64,000 nucleotides of DNA from Prorocentrum cordatum (GCA_963575745.1 CAUYUJ010000247.1:1-64000), one strand, 5' to 3'. Numbered from the stretch's first letter, positions 4,335-38,100 are shown. The notes: a model not told the origin generated them from the letters alone. Numbers and translations are program-made.

Positions 4335-5490
4335 TGGCCCCGAACAATGTGTTTCTAGCAATCGATACTGTGCAATCTATAAGAAGCAATCGATTTGGTG
4401 CCATTAGCTGTTGCTCGCAATGAAGTTTTAACTCCACTGTTCGTGCAATGATCCCACCCCCCCGCCCGCAACTTGGTTTGCACAACCCTTGCGGCGGCGA
4501 TTGCGATGAGTGCTTGAGGCTAGCTGGCGCATCGCTGCGGCCGCGCAAGCGCGCGAAGGCTCGTGCGCAGAGCGGCCAGCTAATCTGGCGCGACCGACGC
4601 GACCGCGGTGGCGCTGACCGCTAGGGCCTTCCCAGCGGGTCCCGCAGGCCGCGCTGACGCGCGGCCAGTTCAATGCGAGTCGATGGTTCGGGCGGGCGCG
4701 GTACAAAGGCGACGTCGACAACGGCAGACACGATCATTGTAGCGGTGCTTGCGACAGCGATAATAATGACGACGGCAATGCCAATGACGTCGCCGACGCC
4801 GATCATGCCGATGACGATGATGGTGTCCACGTGTCGAAAAAAAAAAGACTTCGACATGCGCGCGCGCGGCCGACGGGTGCAAGTGGCCCGATTGGACAAA
4901 TCGTGCCCCCAGCACGCGCGCGAGGGCGTCTGAATGATTTTGGCATGCGCGCGCGAGGCGCACGTTGGGCCGATGTGGCTGAGAACGCGTTGACCACATA
5001 CATCAAAACAGTAATCATAAAACATTCGAAATGGCGAGCGCGCCGACTTTTCTGGAACACGCACGTTGCAGACTCATGTGCTTTATTTATATGCTTCAGG
5101 GAAGTTCGATGTTGATATTCTTGCGACATTTAAGCGGGCTTTGAATGGGCACGCGCACGTGTGCTTCGCCGTTTTTTGCACGGGATTGTTGGGCATGTGT
5201 GATTTTCGACAAACAAGCGTGCGCACATGGTGTTTTTTTCCGCAACGGGTGTGGGGGATCGATACCAGCCTGCCTGTGGTCGTATGATCGCAAATCCTCC
5301 AACAACGGGTTGTACCGATAAGCCCGCCCTCGCGAAGGTGGTGGGTCTACTCTCTTGCAAACAAAGAAATGTTTCTGTTGCCATGTATGTTATGCGATAT
5401 ATGTTGTGCCATCTATGTTGGGCAGTAGTTGTGGTGGAATCTGTTTGCGCAACCTACGTGGTGCAATCTATGTATTTATTATTATATATA
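4335..5490 (+). repeat. Large composite repeat unit, copy 1 (host of the TIR element insertion)
   Basis: Blocks CCCGCAACTTGGTTTGCA, GCGGCCAGCT..TGGCGCGACCGACGCG, GATACC.GCCTG and GTGGTGCAATCTAT recur in the same order at 11500-14330. Confidence 0.7.
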
Positions 5491-5604
5491 TGGTCGCCCC
5501 CCTCCAAGATCATACCTTTTCGTCTCCTCATCCTCGATTGCTTCTTTTCCTGTCTCTCTCCCTCTCTCTCTCTCTCCTTTCTCTGTTTCTGGGCTCTCTC
5601 GGGA

Positions 5605-6205
5605 CTTTGACCGTTGAGAACCGTTGTGCTTGGAAGATTTTCCAGATTTTCCAGGTTTTCCAGACACTGACCATTGAGAAACGCTGTGTTTTCCAGGTTT
5701 TCCAGGTTTTCCCAGACACTGACCGTTGAGAAAAGCTGTGTTTTCCAGGTTTTCCAGGTTTTCCAGGTTTTCCCAGACACTGACCGTTGAGACAAGTTGT
5801 GTTTTCCCGGTTTTCTAAATTTTCCAGGTTTTCCCAGGAGCTCGCAGTTGAGAAACGTTGTGTTTTCCAGGTTTTCCAGATTTTCCAGGTTTTCCCAGAC
5901 ACTGACCGTTGAGAAACGCTCACTCAGTTGGAAGTCTCTGGGGAGATCTGGAATACCTGGAACATCTGGAACACACAATGTTTTTCACCTGGGTAGGCTC
6001 TGTGGAGATCTGGAATATTTGGGAAATCTGGAAAACGCAATGTTTTTCACCTGGGTAGTCTCTGGGAAGATCTGGAATATCTGGAACATCTGGAAGACAC
6101 ACTGTTTTTCACCTGGGTGGTTTCTGGGGAGATCTGGAATATCTGGAAACACAGGGTTTTTCAACGGTCAGTGCCTGGGAAGACCTGGGCAACCTGGAAA
6201 ACACA
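5605..6205. repeat. Left subterminal array of the TIR element; direct copies then inverted copies
   Basis: Repeated TTTTCCAGGTTTTCCCAGACACTGACCGTTGAGAAAC units (5605-5920), then reverse-oriented CTGGAA/CTGGGA units ending in CAACGGTCAGTGCCTGGGAA, the near reverse complement of the first unit. Confidence 0.85.
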
Positions 6206-6397
6206 AGCCGCGCGACCCCTTATTTGTTCATCGGGAGACGTCGTGCGCGCGCAAGTCAGGTGACTCCAACGAGGCAGCATTGGCCGCTTGCTGCCCCGCC
6301 CGTTGCAGAAGTGCACCCCTCACAGCGGCCTCCAGCCGCAATCGCAAACGCCGTTTATACATCACACCCCTCAGAGCGCCAGCCATCGCAAGCGCCC

Positions 6398-8650
6398 TCA
6401 CGCAGGCGCGCCAGCGCCCGAACTCGGTGCCGCGGCGCCCGCCACCCCGCCGTCCTCTAGCATCTGCGAGAGGTCCTCCTCGAGGTCTGTGCGCTTCTTC
6501 TTCGGCGTCGGCGTGCCCAAATGAATGACGACGCAATCCTTGGACTTCTTGAGGCGCTGGCGGAACACCCCTGGCCCCCTCTTGATCGCCACCGCAGGCG
6601 AGGGGGGCGCGGCCGCGACGGCCGCGGGGGGGGGGGGCCGTCGTCGCCATCCATCCCGCCGCCGAAGCCGAAGACGTCTTCCTCGTCCTCTGCTGCGGCG
6701 GCGCCTCTCATCTCGCCGCCGAGACCAGAGTCGGCGTCATCGTCATCTGGGTTGCCTGGGATGGCGGGCGCAGGGGGCGCGGCCGCGCTGGCGGCGGCGG
6801 ATGCGTCGGCGCCGACGTTCATTTCACCGTCCATTGCAGCGAAATCATACTTCGGGGGCGCGCCCTGGTCGAAGAGCGTGGGGCCGCGAACCGTCCTCGA
6901 GCGCCCGGTGTCCCCGCCGCGAGCAAGCTTCTTCATGGCGGCCACGGCCCACTTCATGTGCACGCCGTAGTCGGGCGGCGCGAAGGTCTGGTCCTTCTTG
7001 AACCGCTTCAGGATAGGGGTGGTCTCGGGCGTGAAGAGGTCTGGCTTCTCGGGCACTGGCCACGGGAAGCGGGGGACTGGATCCTTAGTCGTAGACGCCA
7101 GCCACGGGTACATCCAGTCGTCAGTGAGGAGCACGATGTTGGACCTCGCCATGTACGCCTCCACGTCCGCCATCTGGTAGCCGCACTGCTTCTCGCCAGC
7201 GAAGTTGCGATCTATGATTTTGAGGAAGTCGTCGAATTTGACCACTTGTTGGCCTCTGCGGATGGAACGCACCTTCCTCTCGAACTCCTGGTCGTAGGGG
7301 TTGGCGCAGGTCTGGCGGGACTGGTTCTGCTCGAAGGAGGCGCCGCCCCACCCATGCAGCGCGCGGAAACGACGCGCACCAAAACCTACATGTAAAACAT
7401 GGCTTGTCGCCGTTTGGGTGTTTGATTGTTTATACTTTTCGACGGCGTGCGTCATCCGCGCCCTGCGGGCCCGCCCGCAGCAGCGCGTCCTCCTCGGCGG
7501 GGTCCAGGAAGGCCTTGATCTCATCGGGGGCCCACTTCGTGGGGGCGGTGTCGTCCGCGATAGCGGGCTTGAACGCAGTTCCAGGCTCGGGCCGCAAGAA
7601 GTCGATTTTCTTCGTCGTGACGACGCTCGGACGGAGGTCGGTGCGGTTATTCTTATCAATCTGGTAGGCTGAGATTGCGAAGCCGATGGTTTTCGACGCC
7701 GTGGACTTGCCGACCCTGGTCTTGCCGATCCACATGGCCCCGTGCACGTCGTGGCTCTTGAGAATGAGGGCGACGATGTTGTCGAGCACGAACGGGTGGA
7801 AGCGCTGGGGCGTGATCGCCCAGCGCTCGAGTGTCCTCGCGCCAACAGAGCCCGACGCGTAATTGCGGAGCGACTCCTTGGCTTCCGATGCCAGCCAGCC
7901 AAAGATCGGCGACTTCTCGTCGTTGATCTGTCAATCGGTCCACTCCGCGAACTGGTTGCGGTTGTTTGCCCTCGGGCCGAACTCCTTTATGAGACGATAG
8001 CCCGCCCTTCGCTTCTCCTTGTCGTAACCGCCACCGCCGACGGCGGCGGCCGCGGGCGGCTGAACCCAATGGCGGATCTGCACCCCGCCCAGCCTGTCCA
8101 TCATATAGTGAAAGAGTTTGAGTGGCGTCTTAGTGTCGGCCGAACTCCCCCAGTGGATGGTGGGCGCCCTGCCTGCAACGAAGATGTCCTTGGCAATGTC
8201 GGTCTGAACCTTGTTGTCGAACCTGACGTACTTCAGCGCGTGCTGCTCGCCGTTCGCGTCCTTCGGCAAGATGTGCAGCTGCATGGTGAAGGCGATCTCG
8301 CCAGGGTCCCTGTTGGGCTTAAGCGGGGCTGGCAACGCCGTGTAGTTGCCCCCGCACATGGCGTCATGCACGTCGACTGTGTCCACTTGATCCGCGGCGC
8401 CATCCTCCAACGTCACCCAATCCACTAAATGCATCATATTCACGACGTTGTCCGCGTACTGGAGCGGCATGTCGCGGAGGGCGAAAGCAGCGGGAGGGTC
8501 TGATTGGAAACGCTCGGGCGTGTCGAGCGTCTTGTAGGACTGCGCCGCCGCCATGCGCAGCCGCGTGTTTTTGATTTGGTCAGTTGCGGAGGCGCCGCCG
8601 ACGACGATCTCCCCCATTGACTTGATGCCGCCAGCCGCCAAGCTCGCCAT
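6398..8650 (-). pseudogene. Rep-like gene (putative HUH-like N-terminal domain + SF3-type P-loop helicase), lightly decayed
   Basis: ORFs 7931-8668 and 7430-7789 are in one frame, separated by a single TGA (7931-7933). Walker A GKTRVGKS, Walker B AIADD. After a ~118-nt intron-like insert (7353-7470, GC start, no intact AG) it continues WGGASFEQNQSRQTCANP (motif C-like). Poly-C frameshift near 6630; stop at 6398. Confidence 0.7.
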
Positions 8651-8731
8651 GGCAGACAGCGGGTGCAAACGGAAGCTTGCAGCGAAAGGTTGGCAGTTGG
8701 GGACAGCAAGCGCGGACTATTGAACCCTGCG

Positions 8732-8752
8732 GTTGAGCCCGACAGCTACGAA
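8732..8752 (-). other. Degenerate spliced-leader relic upstream of Rep-like gene
   Basis: TTCGTAGCTGTCGGGCTCAAC keeps both SL cores (CGTAGC, GGCTCAA), ~80 nt before the likely ATG. Confidence 0.55.
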
Positions 8753-8987
8753 CAGAGGGATGTCGGCAAGGACGTTGCCGTTGCTGCGAGGTGGCAAGAC
8801 TGGCGGCGGCACTGGTGAATACAACTGTTTCTTCGCTAGTGTTGGTCATGGAACAAGTCGACAGCTATATGCGTAACTGCGCACATTTCGCTTGGGCACT
8901 CTCGCCATGCTGGCCCAGCATACCGCAACGCAGAAAGCATCCCAGAGTTAAACCTCGCCCTCAGTGAACGCAATGGCACTCCCACCC

Positions 8988-10268
8988 TCAGTGCACGCCG
9001 CTCATCTCTTCGTAGATCATGCCACCCGTGGCCACCCAGAGGTCGTTGCCCTTGTTCCAGTACTCCCACTGTCCCGAGCGAATCCTGCTGGCCAGTGCCC
9101 TGCTCTTGGGCTTCAGAGTGCGGCTGCCGATGTGCTCCTTCAAGAACTGCCCGGCCCTGTCCGCGATCTGCGTGCCGCCCTTCACAAGGATGGAGCCGCC
9201 CCCAGGCAGTTTGTGACGCACCAGCTTGGTGAACGTGGGCTTGAGCCACACCCACTTGCCGCAGATTTCCTTGCGCTTCCGCGCGTGCACGACCCAGTCA
9301 TGTAGGACCCCATCCGCCCGAATCTTGTAGCTCCTGGCGCCGTCGGAGTGGGGGATGACCTTCTGGTGCTGCAGGCGGCTGAGCAAGAACGGCTTCCAGT
9401 CTGACTTGGTGATTGCCCCAGGGCCTGGCGCCTTCGGGGCGGTCGTGTCGTTGTTGATGCGCCACAGTGCCAAGCTCTGTGGGCGCCCGCGCTCAACGCA
9501 GCCAGCCCGCTGCTCCCATTCGTTCGTTTTCTTGTCAGCTGATAGCGCCGCGCGGAAAACCGTCTCGTCCGCTTCCACGTCCACCCACTCCTTGTCGCCC
9601 CCGAACGCGATCTCCTTCTCCTTCTTCTCGACGAACCGCTGGCGGGCTGCGTCCAGGTACTTGGACATGCGTTCGATAGCCTTGTGCTTGACGTTGAGCA
9701 GGAGGTGGATCTGCGAGGTGGTCATCCGGATCAACAGGCAGAACAACATCTTGACCTTGTTCATCAGCGACATCTTGCTCTGTCCATTGCCGTCGCTGAA
9801 CACGGGGTGCCCGTAGCACGCGCCCACCTGCTTCCCGCGCCGCCGACCGCTGTTGCATCGCCACTTCTCCGCCCCGTCCGCCTGGACACGCCGATTGCCG
9901 AGCTTGCCCTGCCCGCAGTGCGGACAGATGCGGCCCGACCAATCAATCAAGATGTTGTCCTCGATCAGCACCGACACCATGTCCTCCTCAGACTCCCCCT
10001 CGAGGCTGGCGAGGGAGCGGCGCCATTGCTCACGTTCTGTGCGGGTCTTCGTGGGCAGCGTGCCGCTGCGGGTATATTTCACGGAGGCCTTCATGCTGTT
10101 CTTCTTCTTCTTCTGCTTCATGGCACTCTGGTCACGGCCCATGATGCCCTTGCCGCGCTTAGGCGCTGGGAAAGGGCGGAACGATTTGTCTGGGCGTTTC
10201 AACATCGTTTTCTCGGTTGGGATGGTGGCCCCAGCGGGCCGCTTCATCGCGCCAGCGGGCCGCTTCAT
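8988..10268 (-). CDS. IS1595/ISXO2 (Merlin)-type transposase, ~426 aa, intronless
   Basis: Zn-ribbon CPHC...WRC; catalytic-type motifs VEADET, HSDGARSY, VVH and GGTQIADR(AG)QFLK in the IS1595 order; basic N-terminal MKRPAGAMKRPAGA. First ATG at 10268 (track start is a GTG at 10283). Confidence 0.85.
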   Translation of the reverse strand: MKRPAGAMKRPAGATIPTEKTMLKRPDKSFRPFPAPKRGKGIMGRDQSAMKQKKKKNSMKASVKYTRSGTLPTKTRTEREQWRRSLASLEGESEEDMVSVLIEDNILIDWSGRICPHCGQGKLGNRRVQADGAEKWRCNSGRRRGKQVGACYGHPVFSDGNGQSKMSLMNKVKMLFCLLIRMTTSQIHLLLNVKHKAIERMSKYLDAARQRFVEKKEKEIAFGGDKEWVDVEADETVFRAALSADKKTNEWEQRAGCVERGRPQSLALWRINNDTTAPKAPGPGAITKSDWKPFLLSRLQHQKVIPHSDGARSYKIRADGVLHDWVVHARKRKEICGKWVWLKPTFTKLVRHKLPGGGSILVKGGTQIADRAGQFLKEHIGSRTLKPKSRALASRIRSGQWEYWNKGNDLWVATGGMIYEEMSGVH

Positions 10269-10308
10269 CGCGGCAAAGACCACGGCGGAACCCGCTGCTC
10301 GAGGGAAG

Positions 10309-10330
10309 TTTGGGCCAGGGCGGCTACGAG
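10309..10330 (-). other. Degenerate dinoflagellate spliced-leader relic upstream of transposase
   Basis: CTCGTAGCCGCCCTGGCCCAAA vs DCCGTAGCCATTTTGGCTCAAG, 14/22, mismatches mostly transitions, ~40 nt before the ATG, preceded by (CCT)n. Confidence 0.6.
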
Positions 10331-10399
10331 GAGGAGGATGAGGAGGAGGAGGAGGATCCTATGTCTAATTGGAACAGTGCTGGACTGCTCCACATGTGG

Positions 10400-10446
10400 C
10401 TTTGGTTCTAGTTATTGTTCTGGCTCTGGTTCTGGCTCTGGTTCAA

Positions 10447-10483
<37 letters not shown>

Positions 10484-10504
10484 CTTTGGTTGTGGTTCTG
10501 GTTC

Positions 10505-10542
<38 letters not shown>

Positions 10543-10630
10543 ATGCTGATTCTGGCTCTGGTTCTTGTTCTGTCTCTGGTTCAGCTCCTGGTTATGGGTC
10601 TATTTCTGGCTCTGGTTCAGGCTCTTGTTC
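10400..10630. repeat. TCTGG(T/C) hexamer array inside the TIR element
   Basis: Directly visible tandem hexamers. Confidence 0.9.
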
Positions 10631-10684
10631 CGGCAGTAAATCGCGCGCAGACGAACGGCAGTGTTTTCGGGCGCGGAGGTGGGA

Positions 10685-11190
10685 ACCCTGGCCAGGGGGC
10701 CTTTTTTTCAGGGTCCCTCTCCAGCACATCAAACGGGCAAGGAAGCCTTTTCAGGTTTTCCCGTCCCGCCACTGGCCAGGGAGCCTTTTTCAGGTTCCCT
10801 CTCCAGCACATCAAACGGGCCAGGAAGCCTTTTCAGGTTTCCTCTCCCGCCACTGGCCAGGGAGCCTTTTCAGGTTCCCTTTCCAGCAAATCAAACGGGA
10901 AGGGAAACCTTTTCAGGTTTCCACTCCCGCCACTGGCCAGGGAGCCTTTTCAGGTTCCCTTTCCAGCACATCAAACGGGCAAGGACGCCTTTTCAGGTTT
11001 CCCCTCCCGCCGCTGGCCAGGGAGCCTTTTCAGGTTCCTTCTCCAGCACAACAGACGGGCCAGGAAGCCTTTTCAGGTTTCCCCTCCCACTGGCCAAGGA
11101 GCCTTTTCAGGTTCCCTCTCCAGCACAACAAACGGGCCAGCAAACCTTTTCAGGTTTCCCCTCCCGCCACTGGCCAGGGAGCCTTTCCGT
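10685..11190. repeat. Right subterminal ~80-bp tandem array (6-7 copies) of the TIR element
   Basis: CTGGCCAGGGAGCCTTTTCAGGTTCCCT...CAAACGGGC...CCTTTTCAGGTTTCCCCTCCCGCCA recurs about every 80 nt. Confidence 0.9.
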
Positions 11191-11429
11191 GTCGGCCACA
11201 TCGTCGAAGGGGCACATCGTCGAAGGGGCATCCATAAATGGATGCCCCCTTCTGCCGCATCAAGGCACGATGGAAGGAGACCCTGGAACCGATGCGCAGA
11301 CATAATGAAGATAAGCGTGGTAAAGATGAGTAGGAGGGAGATGGGGATGAATGCGGTTCAAGACGAGATGTATGATCTTGGAGGGGGGGGGAACATATAT
11401 ATATATACATATATATATACATATATATA

Positions 11430-30262: not shown

Positions 30263-32220
<1,958 letters not shown>

Positions 32221-33135: not shown

Positions 33136-35103
33136 GCGTCTACGCCTCGAGCTTCTCCCGGCCTCCCACCCCGCAGGGTGGAGCGACGCGCTGTCCGCTC
33201 GCAGGGCATGGCGTGTCGCCGTTGCCGCTGCGGCGGCAGGCTGTGCACAAGTTCCTGACCGTGCGTCGTTCCACTGCTCCTCTGGGCCGCTCCAGAGAGA
33301 CAGCGGCGCCCCCGTCGCGTCCCCTGTCTGGACTCCTCCGGCCCTCCGAGATCCCCTGCAGAGGTTCGTGCCCGGCTTCTTGTCAGTCCCCGCCGCCGTC
33401 TCGCCGTGATGGAAACAGGTCCTGAGGGAACGGGGCCCTGAGGTTTATCACAGTTTTCGGGCCTTCGGGGCCCACCACGGCCCCAGGATCGCCAGCAAAA
33501 CGGTTCAGGAGGAAAGCCTTGTGCCGGGGGGAGGCCCCAGTGTCCAGGACCCGTTTCCCCGAGGACCCGTTCCCCCCATGCTAAACAGGAGGAGTATACA
33601 AAAATAGTTTAAAAATAGTCTGGGGACTATTTTGTCCATTTTTGAATATATTTATGCTATTTTTAGGGGTATAGTTTCTTTTTCGTCCAAAATCGGCCTG
33701 TAGGGGGACAGGCCCGACTTAATGCTAACCGTCTCAGACATGGGGGGGAGGGGCGCGAGAGGCATTGGGATGGGTGGGCAGGGCAGTCCGTAGCCACGAT
33801 GGCAATCCTGGGCAGGAGAGCGGAGTGGGAGGGTGGGGGAGGCGAGACACTGATGTGAGGTGGGGGACTCAAGGGAGGAGGAGGAGGAGGAGGAGGAGGA
33901 GGAGGAGGAGGAGGAGAAGAAGGAGGAGGAGGAGGAGGCAGGAGGAGGAGGAGGATGAGGAGGACGAGGAGGAGGAGGAGGACGAGGAGGAAGAGGAGGA
34001 GGAGGAGGAGGAGGAATAATAACAAAACAAAAGAAAATACTAATATTCATTTTCGTAACAATAGTAGTGAGACAACCAAGAATATCAACACAATGAAGAA
34101 CACGAGCAGTAACAACAATACTAATAATACTACTAATAATTCTACTTCTATTAAGACTACTACTAATAATACTATTATTCTTAATTCTAATAATAATCAA
34201 AACTAATCAAACTGCGAATGCTAATAACAATACTATTAAATAATAAAAATAGTAGTCAACAATAATAATGAACTTAGTAAACCTAATACAACGAATACTA
34301 CTACTACTACTACTACTACTAATATTAAAACTAATACTACCACAAATACTAATAACAATACTACTACTAGTAATAATAATCATAGTAATAATACTACTAA
34401 TACTAATAATAATAACATTATTAGTCATACTAATACTATTACTGATAATAATGCCACTAAAAATTCATATTCATACTATTAATGTTACTAATACTACTAC
34501 TAATAATGATAACACTAAGAATAATGACAATACTACTACTACTACTAATAGGAATACGAATCATAGCACTACTCATACTACCAATACTATTGCTAACAGC
34601 AATACTAATAGCAATACTAACAATGATACGACTAATAATACAAATAATAACGTTGGTAATGCTAATAATACTACTAATAACAATACGAGCTAATAATAAC
34701 AATGCGAATAATAATACTAGTAGTACTACTACCAATAATAAACTAATTATCACAACGATAAAACTAATATCAGTACTAATAAGTATACTGATACTGCTAC
34801 TAATGATAGTAATACTATTAAGGAGAAAAAAGGGGAGGAGGAGGAGGAGGAGGAGGAGGAGGAGGAGGAGGAGGAGGAGGAGGAGGAGGAGGAGGGAGGA
34901 GGGAGGAGGGATGAGGGAGGAAGGAGGCGGGAGGCGGGAGGCGGGAGGCGGGAGGCGGGAGGAGGGAGGAGGCAGGAGGGAGGCGGGAGGAGGGAGGAGG
35001 GAGGACGGAGGAGGGAGGACGGAGGAGGGAAGAGGAGGAGGAGGAGGAGGAGGAGGAGGAGACCGTAGCCCCCTAGGAGGAGGAGGAGGAGGAGGAGGAG
35101 GAG

Positions 35104-38100
35104 ACCGTAGCCCCCTAGCTCAATCCTGGATGAAGCCTCCACGGCTCGAAGTGGCGCAGAGTCCTTTTTGTGCATACGCGCCCGCACTGCAGCCATGGGC
35201 CATAGCAGGGCCGCGGGCAGGCTGCGGAACCTCGCATGTCCACTCGGGCGGAGATGGGTGGACGTTCGGACGGCAAAAGCAGATGCAAAGCGAGAGGCAA
35301 GGGCAAGGACAAGCAGACCCAGGCCAAAGCCCCGCTCATGCCTCGTGGAGCGCCAACGCCGTCGAGCCAGACCGACTACCCATGGCAATGCATGGGTTGT
35401 TCTGTGAATGTGAATATGTGTCATCAGTGGTTCTGGCAGTGCGGTCAGCATTGGGAGAGCACCATGGCGAACTCCCCCATGAACTCAGGCCACACTGGGG
35501 TCAATAATGATTTCTTCACTAAGGATAATGATAATAAGGGGAATCCGCAGGGACCGCACATATATCTCCTGCAACACACTTACGACATGCTGAAGGCAAC
35601 TTAGTCGAAGAGTGAGTCCTACGGCGCCGAATTGCAGGAGTCGGAGGCAGCGGAGGCAGTGGAGGCTGCCATGAGGAGGCTTCGACGCCAACGCGATTCG
35701 GAGAAATGTGCAGTCCAATTGTCTCAGGCAGCAACAACTCGAGCAGCAAGAGGCCTACGTGTTGAAGCAGGAACAAATTTTGGACGACCTGAATGTGAGG
35801 ATAGCTTTGGTGGAAGAGGATTTGGCTCGTGATGAGCTCGAGGCCAAAGTCATGATGCTGATGAGCTAGGCCCCTTCTTGCGCGTCCTCTCCCATTGGAG
35901 TCGTTGCAGATCCGCATGACATTGTGGCGCCGCCAGGCCTCGTCAGCCCTTGCGTGCGCGCGGGAGGCAAGGGGGCGACAATGGCGGCGCTCAGCGGGGT
36001 GCCGAGTCTGTCTGACATGAGGCGCTACCTGCAGGGACTCAACAACCTGAGTGTGGAACTTTATCCAGCCCTTCGGGCTGGGCTGAACGAGCACTGGCCG
36101 CCTATGCCAGCTCTGCACGTGCTGAAGGCAACCTCCCTATGGCCTGCCCGCGTCGTGAGGGGCGCCAGGGGGCGGCCGAGACCACGTCGGAGCGCGCGGG
36201 GGCCACCGGCGCCGAGGCGGAGGCAGCTGCGTCTGAGAGCTCGGAGATGCAGCGGGCCCCGCTGCCATGCCGCCGCGCGGCAGCGGATGCGGGGCGCGAG
36301 GCGGGGGCTTCAGCGGCGCATCGCCGCCGCGAGGAAGGTGAGGCGGAGGCCGAGGGCGACCCGCCCTGCGGGTAACCTTCGACAGCCTTGTGGCAGAGGA
36401 GGCCAGCTCATCATTCAGACGGTGAACGCCAAGTCTTGGAGCAGTGCGTCGGCCATCGTGGAGTCCACCAGCGCCCGCGTCGTACTCGTTCAGGAACATG
36501 GGCAGCATGGTCGGCCTCTTCTGGAGGCGAAAGAGTTCTTGTGCAAGCGGGGGTGGGGCAGTTTTCGGGCTTCTCGTAAGGTCGCCCGACGAGGTGGCGA
36601 GAGTGCTGGAGTCTGCTCTCTCGCTCGCGCGCGCGTGCATGTCTGGCAGCCCCCCTCGAGCCGTCAGCCCCGATTGCGGTTTTCAGGATTGCCCGCTGTA
36701 GAAGGAAGTCCTTGGGTTCAAATTCCATGTTGAAATTACTGGACAGGCGGGGCTGGCCTTGAGTGGAAAATCCCCGTCTGGCCTAGATGCTGGGGCAGGA
36801 CGTCGCTCGTCGGAACCTCTTGCGCATCTCGGCTGAGGGTCGCCGTCTTGAACATCATCTGTTTCGGGCAGGTGTGTGCCCGCGTGAGCTGAATGGCCAG
36901 TTCTGTATTCCGACTCTCTTTCAGACCTGCCGGTCTAGCGCGCCGGGCCGCTGCTGGGATTATTTCCTGGTCTCCAAGCAGCTGCTGCCTTCCGTGCGTC
37001 GAGGCGGTGTGGGCCGACCTTGATCGAGATATTTGCCCGCGTTGCCCCGTGGAGCTCAGATCCTGAGAAGGCCTCGACAAACTTATGGTTCAGAGGCTCC
37101 TGAAGTACCAGGGGCCCCCCGTGGGCCCCCCCATGGGGCCTGCCCCGCGGTGGCCCCGGTCAGAGGAGGCCATGATGCAAGTCGAGGTCTCCGGGGACTT
37201 ATATACCCAGGGAATCGGGGCGTTTTGGGCTGCAGCAGATTCTGGATCAACTTCGTGGGGATTGCTGTGAAGTTTCTTGAGCGAGCTCAGATGCGGGCTC
37301 CAGAGTTTTCTAGGAGAGCGCCACGGAGGTCTGCCGCGTGACACTGTCGAGGCCCCAGTGGCCGAGATTTTGTACACTGGGCGCTCCTCGACTCGCGGCC
37401 CTTATGAGGCTTTGAGAGGGTTGTCGCTGCGCTTAGGCGAGATTCGAAGCCCGACCGAGAGGCAAGCTCGAGGCGCGCAACCAGTTTTTCAGCAGCTTGC
37501 CCCAGTTCCTTTCAAGGCCTTGCAGAAAGGATGCGTTCTTAAATGCAATTGCCCTGGGGGCCAGGTTCTGGTGTGGGTGCCTTAAGGCAGCTCTGGTTCC
37601 GCTTAGGAATTTTTTCTGATATCACGCAGAAGCGATTCGTGCTCTTGAGGATCTCAGGACCCTTGTGAATCATTGTGCCTCTTTAGCTTTGTGTCGAGAG
37701 GAGGCCCATCGCTCGGCCTTGTGGAGAGATCGGTGCGCTCCAGCCCCCAGTGGTGGAGCCAAGTGGGCACGCGCCTACGCGGGCGCTGCGGAAAATGGGA
37801 GGCAAGATTTGTCCCCTGCAGATGATGGAGAAGCCGCATCATGTCTGTCCTCGTAGCTGTCGCAGGAGGTCGCCACTTGGTCAGGGGCTTGGGGTGTGAA
37901 TACTGGAGCCAGGGGCTCCGGGGTGCCCCAGTGGCCCCGGGGCATGATCATCTTTGGAGCTCCCGGAGGCTGCCGACGTTGTCAAGATCCCTCACTGCTT
38001 CAAGAGGGCCACCGCTGCTGCAGATGGCAGTCGCCCCAGGCGCTGCCATCTTCTATGCGAGCCAGCCCTGAAGTGCTTGAGCTGTAATTTCGGTATTCTG

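Follow-up and report, generated by a model that had tools for sequence, protein, structure and literature searches.

A decayed two-gene transposon copy in Prorocentrum cordatum that probably pairs a distant Merlin-type transposase with a Rep-derived helicase

Cut-and-paste transposons of eukaryotes are, in textbooks, single-gene elements, and their gain in copy number is usually credited to host repair or to replication timing. Here we analyse a 64,000-nucleotide stretch of the dinoflagellate Prorocentrum cordatum (GCA_963575745.1, CAUYUJ010000247.1:1-64000; hereafter the window), in which an element of 5.9 kb (5492-11394), bounded by imperfect inverted repeats, holds two minus-strand genes: one for a transposase and one for a protein resembling viral Rep proteins. 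We consider this element to be probably a decayed copy of a dinoflagellate family of two-gene transposons with terminal inverted repeats (TIRs), in which a distant IS1595/Merlin-type transposase is accompanied by a Rep-derived, initiator-like helicase. If this is true, a helicase of this type kept beside a transposase would offer a concrete route to copy gain and would connect CRESS-type (single-stranded, circular and Rep-encoding DNA) replicons with DDE transposons. The question bears on the growth of the very large, repeat-rich genomes of dinoflagellates.

The transposase gene is the only one described for Merlin/IS1595 elements, and the term "helicase" does not occur in PMC8101967. Their hallmarks in that source are TIRs with terminal 5'-GG and a target-site duplication of 8-9 bp, and Merlin-related sequences are reported there from Symbiodinium genomes. 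The P. cordatum element resembles them in its IS1595-homologous transposase, which has an acidic triad and a probable zinc ribbon at its N-terminus, in a TIR length within the reported range of 24-462 bp, in a left end that begins with GG, and in a possible 8-bp duplication. Unlike them, it has a second, Rep-like gene of ~690 codons and long subterminal arrays, the third catalytic residue of its transposase is D rather than E, and the Pfam IS1595 models do not match it. In the literature as judged from titles and the beginnings of abstracts, supplements excluded, we found no Merlin/IS1595 element with a Rep or superfamily 3 (SF3) helicase gene; a survey of viral genes in Symbiodiniaceae, searched by terms, leaves Reps of single-stranded DNA viruses unmentioned (0 occurrences each of "ssDNA" and "circovir"; PMC9651163).

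Among TIR transposons with a Rep gene, the closest earlier case is a geminivirus-like element from Tuber melanosporum (Liu et al. 2011, PMC3198968), for which the excerpt at hand gives 37-bp TIRs, an open reading frame (ORF) resembling Rep, transposase ORFs and a microsatellite. That element is fungal, its Rep is recognisable by sequence as geminivirus-like, and no target duplication is reported in the same excerpt; it reflects one recent amplification in one genome, whereas the dinoflagellate pairing spans divergent lineages and two genera. Teratorn, a piggyBac transposon fused with a herpesvirus genome, is described in part of PMC10175614 as a DDE transposon coupled to, and co-evolving with, a viral replication module; it comprises a full virus genome of 180 kb, compared with 5.9 kb and one replication-type gene here, and its transposase and virus families are different ones. 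Helitrons and Replitrons have active HUH Reps without TIRs or duplications, the Replitron Reps lack a helicase, and dinoflagellates go unmentioned in the consulted sections of PMC10288648. The P. cordatum element differs from both in that the HUH and Tyr motifs are absent and TIRs and a DDD transposase are present. What is new is the pairing of a Merlin-like transposase with a Rep-like gene; a TIR DNA transposon with a replication gene derived from a virus or plasmid is an already known kind.

Reps of CRESS-DNA viruses and pCRESS plasmids comprise an HUH endonuclease, an oligomerisation domain and an SF3 helicase, and the dinoflagellate protein shares this three-part architecture by predicted fold together with conserved Walker A, Walker B, sensor Asn and Arg residues. 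It is twice their size, with an extra folded C-terminal domain of ~160 residues and a disordered tail, and neither the HUH nor the YxxK motif, as defined for Reps in the cited part of PMC6668415, is conserved. Its gene, unlike theirs, has spliceosomal introns and is chromosomal, multi-copy and adjacent to a DDD transposase, in an element with no capsid gene. As a working analogy, the large T antigen of SV40 and other polyomaviruses and the papillomavirus E1 protein likewise combine a Rep-fold DNA-binding domain that does not nick with an SF3 helicase. The SF3 helicases of large T and E1 melt origins built of repeated or inverted sites. The analogy stops short of a sequence-level relationship, those proteins are viral rather than transposon-borne, and the arrays of the present element are only putative origins.

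Ends of the element and its transposase gene

The first-pass annotation of this stretch, made from its sequence alone, had claimed TIRs and subterminal arrays, and both were borne out. The left TIR (5492-5526, plus strand) pairs with the right TIR (11360-11394, minus strand) over ~35 nt, with 30/35 positions identical to the reverse complement, one gap and a perfect 19-nt core, CCCCCCTCCAAGATCATAC. The left terminus starts with GG and the right one, as its reverse complement, with GT. Directly beyond both ends lies the octamer ATATATAT (5484-5491 and 11395-11402), which is compatible with an 8-bp target duplication. This candidate proves little because the octamer falls inside a run of (AT)n and is identical to its reverse complement, and we do not regard it as decisive.

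Subterminal arrays occupy 5600-6215 on the left, where units of 61 nt (5688-5920, 3.8 copies) are followed by units of 62 nt in the opposite orientation (5933-6148, 3.5 copies; Tandem Repeats Finder, TRF), the whole forming a long imperfect palindrome. Computed as single-stranded DNA, the left arrays fold jointly as one giant hairpin with a minimum free energy of -149.1 kcal/mol, compared with -78.9 ± 6.0 kcal/mol for 20 shuffles (z -11.7). The right array (10688-11186) comprises 6.2 units of 80 nt, each with two TTTTCAGG-containing half-units, and a GGTTCT/GGCTCT microsatellite is found at 10403-10634, upstream of the transposase gene (both by TRF). A short motif is common to the arrays: all nine occurrences of TTTTCCAGG in the window, and 12 of the 15 of TTTTCAGG, are inside the element. 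No second copy of the element was found within the 64-kb window.

The transposase ORF spans 8988-10283 on the minus strand (431 amino acids), with the start of the gene placed at 10268 (gene, 8988-10268). It is open throughout, and its product aligns end to end with a 429-amino-acid relative at 88% identity. The sole family match of this protein is the NCBIfam model of IS1595 transposases, NF033547 (E 9e-6, 25.7 bits), which also matches 14 of 27 transposase relatives at E<=1e-3 (best 2.4e-8; P0021, 2.8e-8). The Pfam family Zn_ribbon_IS1595 stays below threshold (E 0.2), and the zinc-ribbon cysteines (CPxC...RC...C) are invariant or nearly so among 35 aligned relatives. In the same 35 sequences the first residue of the catalytic triad, D264 (EADE), is invariant, and D339 (HTD) and D400 (TQIIDRAW) are present in at least 90%; the window protein keeps all three. 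We conclude that the transposase is, judged by these residues and the family match, a distant IS1595/Merlin-type member with a DDD variant of the catalytic core, so that the IS1595 assignment of the first reading stands for a remote relative. At three positions the window protein has R, P and G where at least 90% of relatives have W, L and W, and because these conserved positions are altered its activity is doubtful.

The 62 relatives of the transposase come from P. cordatum, Effrenium voratum, Symbiodinium microadriaticum, a EukProt record prefixed "Skav" and many further assemblies. Viral contigs of IMG/VR yielded no relative of the transposase and no TIR core, nor any relative of the Rep-like protein (3 queries). 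Three long ENA/Logan proteins (P0254, P0255 and P0257; 1467-1859 amino acids) have a complete Merlin-like transposase at the C-terminus and a large N-terminal part with degenerate P-loop-like strings, to which neither the Rep-like profile nor Pfam gives a match. This N-terminal part may represent a different type of gene that partners the same transposases.

The Rep-like gene and the protein it encodes

Downstream of the transposase gene, and co-oriented with it as first proposed, lies the Rep-like gene (8650-6398, minus strand). Alignment to homologues and to L001, a 1971-nt metagenome contig, delimits a minus-strand spacer of 8651-8987 from the transposase stop to the Rep-like start codon. 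Exon 1 (7470-8650) encodes the Rep/origin-binding-like domain, the helical linker, Walker A (GKTRVGKST) and Walker B (ADD); exon 2 (6398-7351, with the stop at 6398-6400) encodes the ATPase from motif C onward, the C-terminal domain and the tail. The 118-nt intron between them (7352-7469) is located at the point where homologous proteins join LLWAR to WGG. For both genes the closest relatives are annotated P. cordatum proteins. The ~700-residue P-loop protein expected here is realised in intact homologues, which have 687-703 amino acids, whereas the window copy is interrupted.

The interruptions are of several kinds. An in-frame TGA (7931-7933) replaces a Glu present in all homologues (WTDEQIND). 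Both splice sites of the intron are altered, with CC as donor and GG as acceptor compared with GC...AG in L001, and LLWAR itself reads R for W and G for R394, an Arg kept in 57/58 family members. A run of 12 C (6626-6637) shifts the frame; protein P0010 implies 10 C, and tblastn of P0010 changes frame at 6634/6628. This last lesion may be a homopolymer error of the assembly. At 7469, 7471 and 7477, other copies in public runs have the letters of L001 and not those of the window. Because of the nonsense codon, the altered splice sites and the frameshift, we read the window Rep-like gene as a pseudogene, a decayed and dead copy. One contig of run X1 skips 102 nt (7370-7471; joint 7369->7472), off the intron borders and without restoring the frame, and possibly stems from another copy that has a deletion.

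A second metagenome contig (L002), with a Rep-like gene 36% identical, has a ~400-nt intron (1515-1917) roughly seven codons upstream of the intron position shared by L001 and the window, and intron sites are therefore not fixed in the Rep-like family. The GC-AG intron and the others show these to be long-resident nuclear genes.

Sequence searches of Pfam, PHROGs, NCBIfam and the PDB with pieces of the window Rep-like protein gave no meaningful match, and a profile search of PDB sequences returned matches of Walker-A length only (best E 0.011). The family is nevertheless large: a library clustered at 50% identity contains 1275 representatives at E<=1e-3, 737 at <=1e-10 and 233 at <=1e-30. We modelled an intact homologue (P0008) with AlphaFold from a 58-sequence alignment (pLDDT 82.7, pTM 0.64). 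The model consists of an alpha/beta domain (residues ~40-200), a helical linker (~210-270), a P-loop ATPase (~275-415), a further folded domain to ~575 and a disordered tail. Foldseek against BFVD, a set of predicted viral structures, returned 340 matches at E<=1e-3 (best 3.9e-11) with alignments of 400-650 columns, and among the 50 matches listed every named one is a Rep or replicase of a CRESS-DNA virus, a crucivirus or a geminivirus. Against the PDB the single match below 1e-3 was Vientovirus Rep (9.4e-5), followed by Rep68 of adeno-associated virus (AAV), B19 NS1 and the Rep ATPase of porcine circovirus 2 (PCV2; prob 0.99); a circovirus Rep nuclease domain (7kii_A) also matched over 107 columns (prob 0.85). 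By ESM Atlas features, clusters of Viral_Rep, Gemini_AL1, Rep_OBD and E1_DBD lie closest to residues 30-205 (0.86-0.90, at the level of a lead), and those of PF00910 SF3 helicase and Rep lie closest to residues 206-575 (0.90-0.94). In a VIA-align comparison with the PDB the rows are filled by the ATPase domain, so that the N- and C-terminal domains are barely covered and SF3 is not singled out; the E1 helicase aligns there over model residues 204-541. Conservation of the ATPase residues is high (Walker A G314 and K315, 58/58; DD366-367, 56/58; K379, 57/58; R394, 57/58; N411, 53/57; R463, 56/58). The predicted fold supports the view that the Rep-like protein is Rep-derived in architecture, with a Rep/origin-binding-like domain, a helical linker and an SF3-type ATPase. 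A predicted complex of Rep-like residues 1-565 with the transposase scored 0.00 and was uninformative.

Ten Rep-like clusters that we looked up all sit on contigs of 0.9-6.9 kb, one of them with 44 members of 875-910 amino acids from many assemblies; these could be transcripts, fragmented assemblies or small replicons. In the cluster of P0012, EukProt gives a 100-amino-acid member (>=90% identity) the label Pyramimonas sp. CCMP1952, and the P. cordatum proteins of this cluster also carry an NCBI nr name with Polarella glacialis. Both labels may reflect cross-contamination or a labelling issue rather than transfer.

Recurrence of the gene pair and readings of the element

The first-pass annotation had proposed a composite class of element rather than chance cargo, and left room for the P-loop gene to be confined to this copy. 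It recurs in other contigs and proteins. L001 is 88% identical to window positions 9135-7138 and contains the last 48 transposase codons, the spacer, an intact Rep-like exon 1 and the intron. A metagenome search with a 5-sequence alignment gave 224 candidate stretches, of which two, both short contigs, are relatives. Run X3, a marine metagenome, has one 863-nt contig on 8286-8685 plus 8847-9151 that bridges both genes, and its further contigs tile 6255-10318. In P. cordatum, Rep-like P0014 and transposase P0022 have consecutive accession numbers on one contig of 291,027 nt. Both profiles match one and the same protein in 7 of 246 proteins (66 with a transposase match, 186 with a Rep-like match) and in 5 of 8 further transposase relatives longer than 752 amino acids. 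The two-domain gene models number 12 (nine from P. cordatum, one from Effrenium voratum, two others); the transposase precedes the Rep part in eight and follows it in four, and P0250 reads transposase-Rep-transposase. From these sequences, the two genes appear to travel together. The Rep-like fold, the recurrence in contigs, the adjacent genes and the 12 two-domain models support the composite class.

Selection on the Rep-like gene, which the same proposal had made a point of, was found between the window and L001: dN/dS is 0.44 over 392 codons and 0.25 over 71 codons. In the longer comparison, changes affect 39 of 268.5 synonymous and 61 of 907.5 non-synonymous sites (Fisher p 1.5e-4). The transposase gives 0.38 over 48 codons. 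Divergence between the two copies is 22% in the spacer, 7-9% across the coding parts of the Rep-like gene and 3% over the tail of the transposase (48 codons). This codon comparison shows the Rep-like gene to be under constraint. The p-distances of one gene are correlated with those of the other across 14 pairs (86 comparisons; Pearson 0.54, Spearman 0.32, Mantel p~0.0008).

A number of findings count against a two-gene family of this kind, and they concern both the identity of the parts and their association. All NF033547 scores are below the curated cut-off of 75 bits, and the Pfam IS1595 DDE model matches neither the window protein nor 9 relatives. No Pfam family reaches its gathering score in 58 Rep-like proteins (Viral_Rep, Gemini_AL1 and RNA_helicase, 0/58; Parvo_NS1 matches 1/58, at E 0.0099). 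The likeness to viral Reps originally claimed holds for the fold and fails for the nuclease motifs: none of the N-terminal-domain strands in the 58 aligned sequences has an H-hydrophobic-H/Q motif, HUH is not conserved (nearest candidates K140-H141, with H in 35/58, and M123-Q124, with Q in 42/56; position 141 is Y in the P. cordatum lineage), and the only candidate for the catalytic Tyr, Y182, is conserved in 28/58 (F in 10, W in 4) with no Lys at +3. By these residues the N-terminal domain lacks the HUH and Tyr signature of a nuclease, whether through loss or from the outset, and the protein is probably not a nicking enzyme. As to the association, TIRs around both genes are observed in one copy only, the other contigs being too short to reach the ends, and the candidate target duplication is embedded in a run of AT. 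The fused gene models may be artefacts of prediction, and what they demonstrate is that the genes adjoin on one strand, not that they form a unit. For most of the 1275 Rep-like representatives no neighbour is known. One of them, P0098 (1387 amino acids; Logan/ENA), has its Rep-like part (52-719) fused to a match to the KDZ (Kyakuja-Dileera-Zisupton) transposases at 1184-1316 (E 1.3e-5, 25.4 bits, just under the cut-off of 26.6 bits), a hint of pairing between the Rep-like gene and another transposase superfamily as well.

Nor are the two genes strictly co-inherited. The comparison of their distances yields a correlation and, at the same time, incongruent clades: one Rep clade (distances 0.16-0.27) occurs with two transposase clades 0.51-0.55 apart, one transposase clade (0.05-0.25) occurs with two Rep lineages, one of them nearest the Effrenium Rep, and both gene orders occur. 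The modules have therefore been exchanged, yet they were paired again. The pair has been retained through module exchange, two gene orders and two dinoflagellate genera.

The two-gene family is supported by this evidence; how it works, whether by replicating excised copies or by aiding transposition, we infer. The DDD transposase would cut at the ~35-nt TIRs and paste the element with an 8-bp duplication. The Rep-derived protein would serve as an initiator like large T antigen or E1, its N-terminal domain binding the repeat arrays or palindrome inside the element ends and its SF3 motor opening the DNA, so that the element, excised or in place, could be copied by host polymerases. Cut-and-paste movement combined with such copying would give a net gain of copies. 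The window copy itself, with its Rep-like gene broken and its transposase open but altered, would be incapable of this cycle. A stronger version, which we think rather unlikely, holds that the excised element, circular or with hairpin ends, is replicated as an episome by a nuclease-less initiator derived from a CRESS Rep, with the palindromic arrays as origin, and is then re-inserted. If true, it would define a new class of eukaryotic mobile element that replicates between cut and paste, widespread in dinoflagellates and perhaps in other marine protists (over 1,200 Rep-like protein clusters lack annotation); such an element would bridge small DNA replicons and DDE transposons as a living intermediate.

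A DDE-type transposase with a co-oriented, adjacent, oligomeric ATPase is the pattern of bacterial IS21, Mu and Tn7. The Rep-like ATPase could accordingly be a transposition helper like MuB, IstB or TnsC, which assembles on DNA, selects or prepares the target and activates the transposase, with the N-terminal domain binding the arrays. The ATPase gene does adjoin a co-oriented transposase gene here, DNA-bound IstB (8q3w_A) is among the Foldseek PDB matches, VIA ties the ATPase core to many non-helicase ATPases of the ASCE (additional strand, conserved E) class, and nuclease motifs are dispensable in the Rep-like family. The IstB match is weak, however (E 0.044, prob 0.51), and the BFVD matches and ESM features favour a Rep/SF3 architecture that includes the N-terminal Rep/origin-binding-like domain and the helical linker. 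AAV Rep40 and papillomavirus E1 align from residue ~207, linker included, whereas other ATPases align from ~275. Nor is a eukaryotic Merlin element with such a helper described in the part of PMC8101967 available. We therefore judge a helper role to be unlikely.

The incongruent clades and the two gene orders would also be expected of passive cargo, that is, of an endogenous viral or independent mobile gene that lies near Merlin-like elements or was captured by them, has no role in their movement and has its link to them exaggerated by fused models. The single copy with TIR context fits such cargo, as do the great excess of Rep-like representatives over those tied to a transposase, the one Rep-like member fused to a KDZ domain and the three long transposase models with a different N-terminal partner. 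Against it stand the recurrence of arrangement and spacer in independent DNA contigs, the 12 two-domain models and one adjacent pair from at least four transposase lineages and two dinoflagellate genera, the correlated gene distances and dN/dS values below 1; re-pairing after exchange speaks for selection on the pair. Taken together, these make passive cargo improbable. We give least credence to the reversed assignment, in which the Rep-like protein mobilises the element by a rolling-circle or peel-and-paste route and the DDD transposase is secondary. Rep-class proteins are indeed the transposases of Helitrons, Replitrons and IS91 (in the sections of PMC10288648 consulted), and the palindromic left array resembles the hairpins used by HUH enzymes. 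Such a role is very hard to reconcile with HUH and Tyr positions that are not conserved, with a transposase triad conserved across 35 relatives, and with TIRs and a possible 8-bp duplication, which are hallmarks of DD(E/D) transposases; HUH elements are generally without duplication in the same source. The two-gene transposon with a Rep-derived helicase is the reading we prefer. It would give a first functional context to a family of 1275 representatives without a Pfam match at gathering score. The fused models, and UniRef names such as "RNA helicase" and "DUF927 domain-containing protein", mean that these genes are currently annotated as host genes.

Flanks and other features of the window

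The window has a GC content of ~0.6 and is microsatellite-rich throughout; no Rfam family was found in it. The flanks of the element are direct repeats of each other (4500-4721/11621-11812, and also 5403-5473/11505-11520), with 72-80% identity over 47-81 nt at a distance of ~7.1 kb, and they hold short tandem GTGG[TC]GCAATCTAT motifs. In run X1 the summed contig depth is 3550 and 6846 on the flank repeat bins, compared with 5.6 on bin 5028-5291, where the flank is unique; a host repeat of very high copy number seems to surround the element. Over the element itself the depth is 11-66, a figure that is not a copy number. Read joints at 5471->11502 and 5424->11524, with 20-21 letters to a side, were considered as an empty site and rejected: they are imprecise, and the flanks hold tandem motifs and are part of a high-copy host repeat.

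Farther along the window, a 1721-amino-acid open frame on the minus strand (52258-57423) has a domain of the AP-endonuclease type (Exo_endo_phos, residues 455-647, E 3.9e-6). It looks like ORF2 of a LINE-type (long interspersed nuclear element) retrotransposon, with no reverse-transcriptase match at the threshold used. An AT-rich island at 34001-35000 has a GC content of 0.327, and an ORF that overlaps it (34482-35507, plus strand, 341 amino acids) has a glycine-rich-protein match at E 3.8e-6, below the cut-off. The intervals 30265-31925 and 58008-58975 stand out for long tracts of (GTGT)n, (GAG)n and (GAT)n, whose GC skew is extreme (0.49-0.77), and for a block of tandem repeats of 79-100 nt, together with a 207-nt double unit, at 58.0-59.0 kb.

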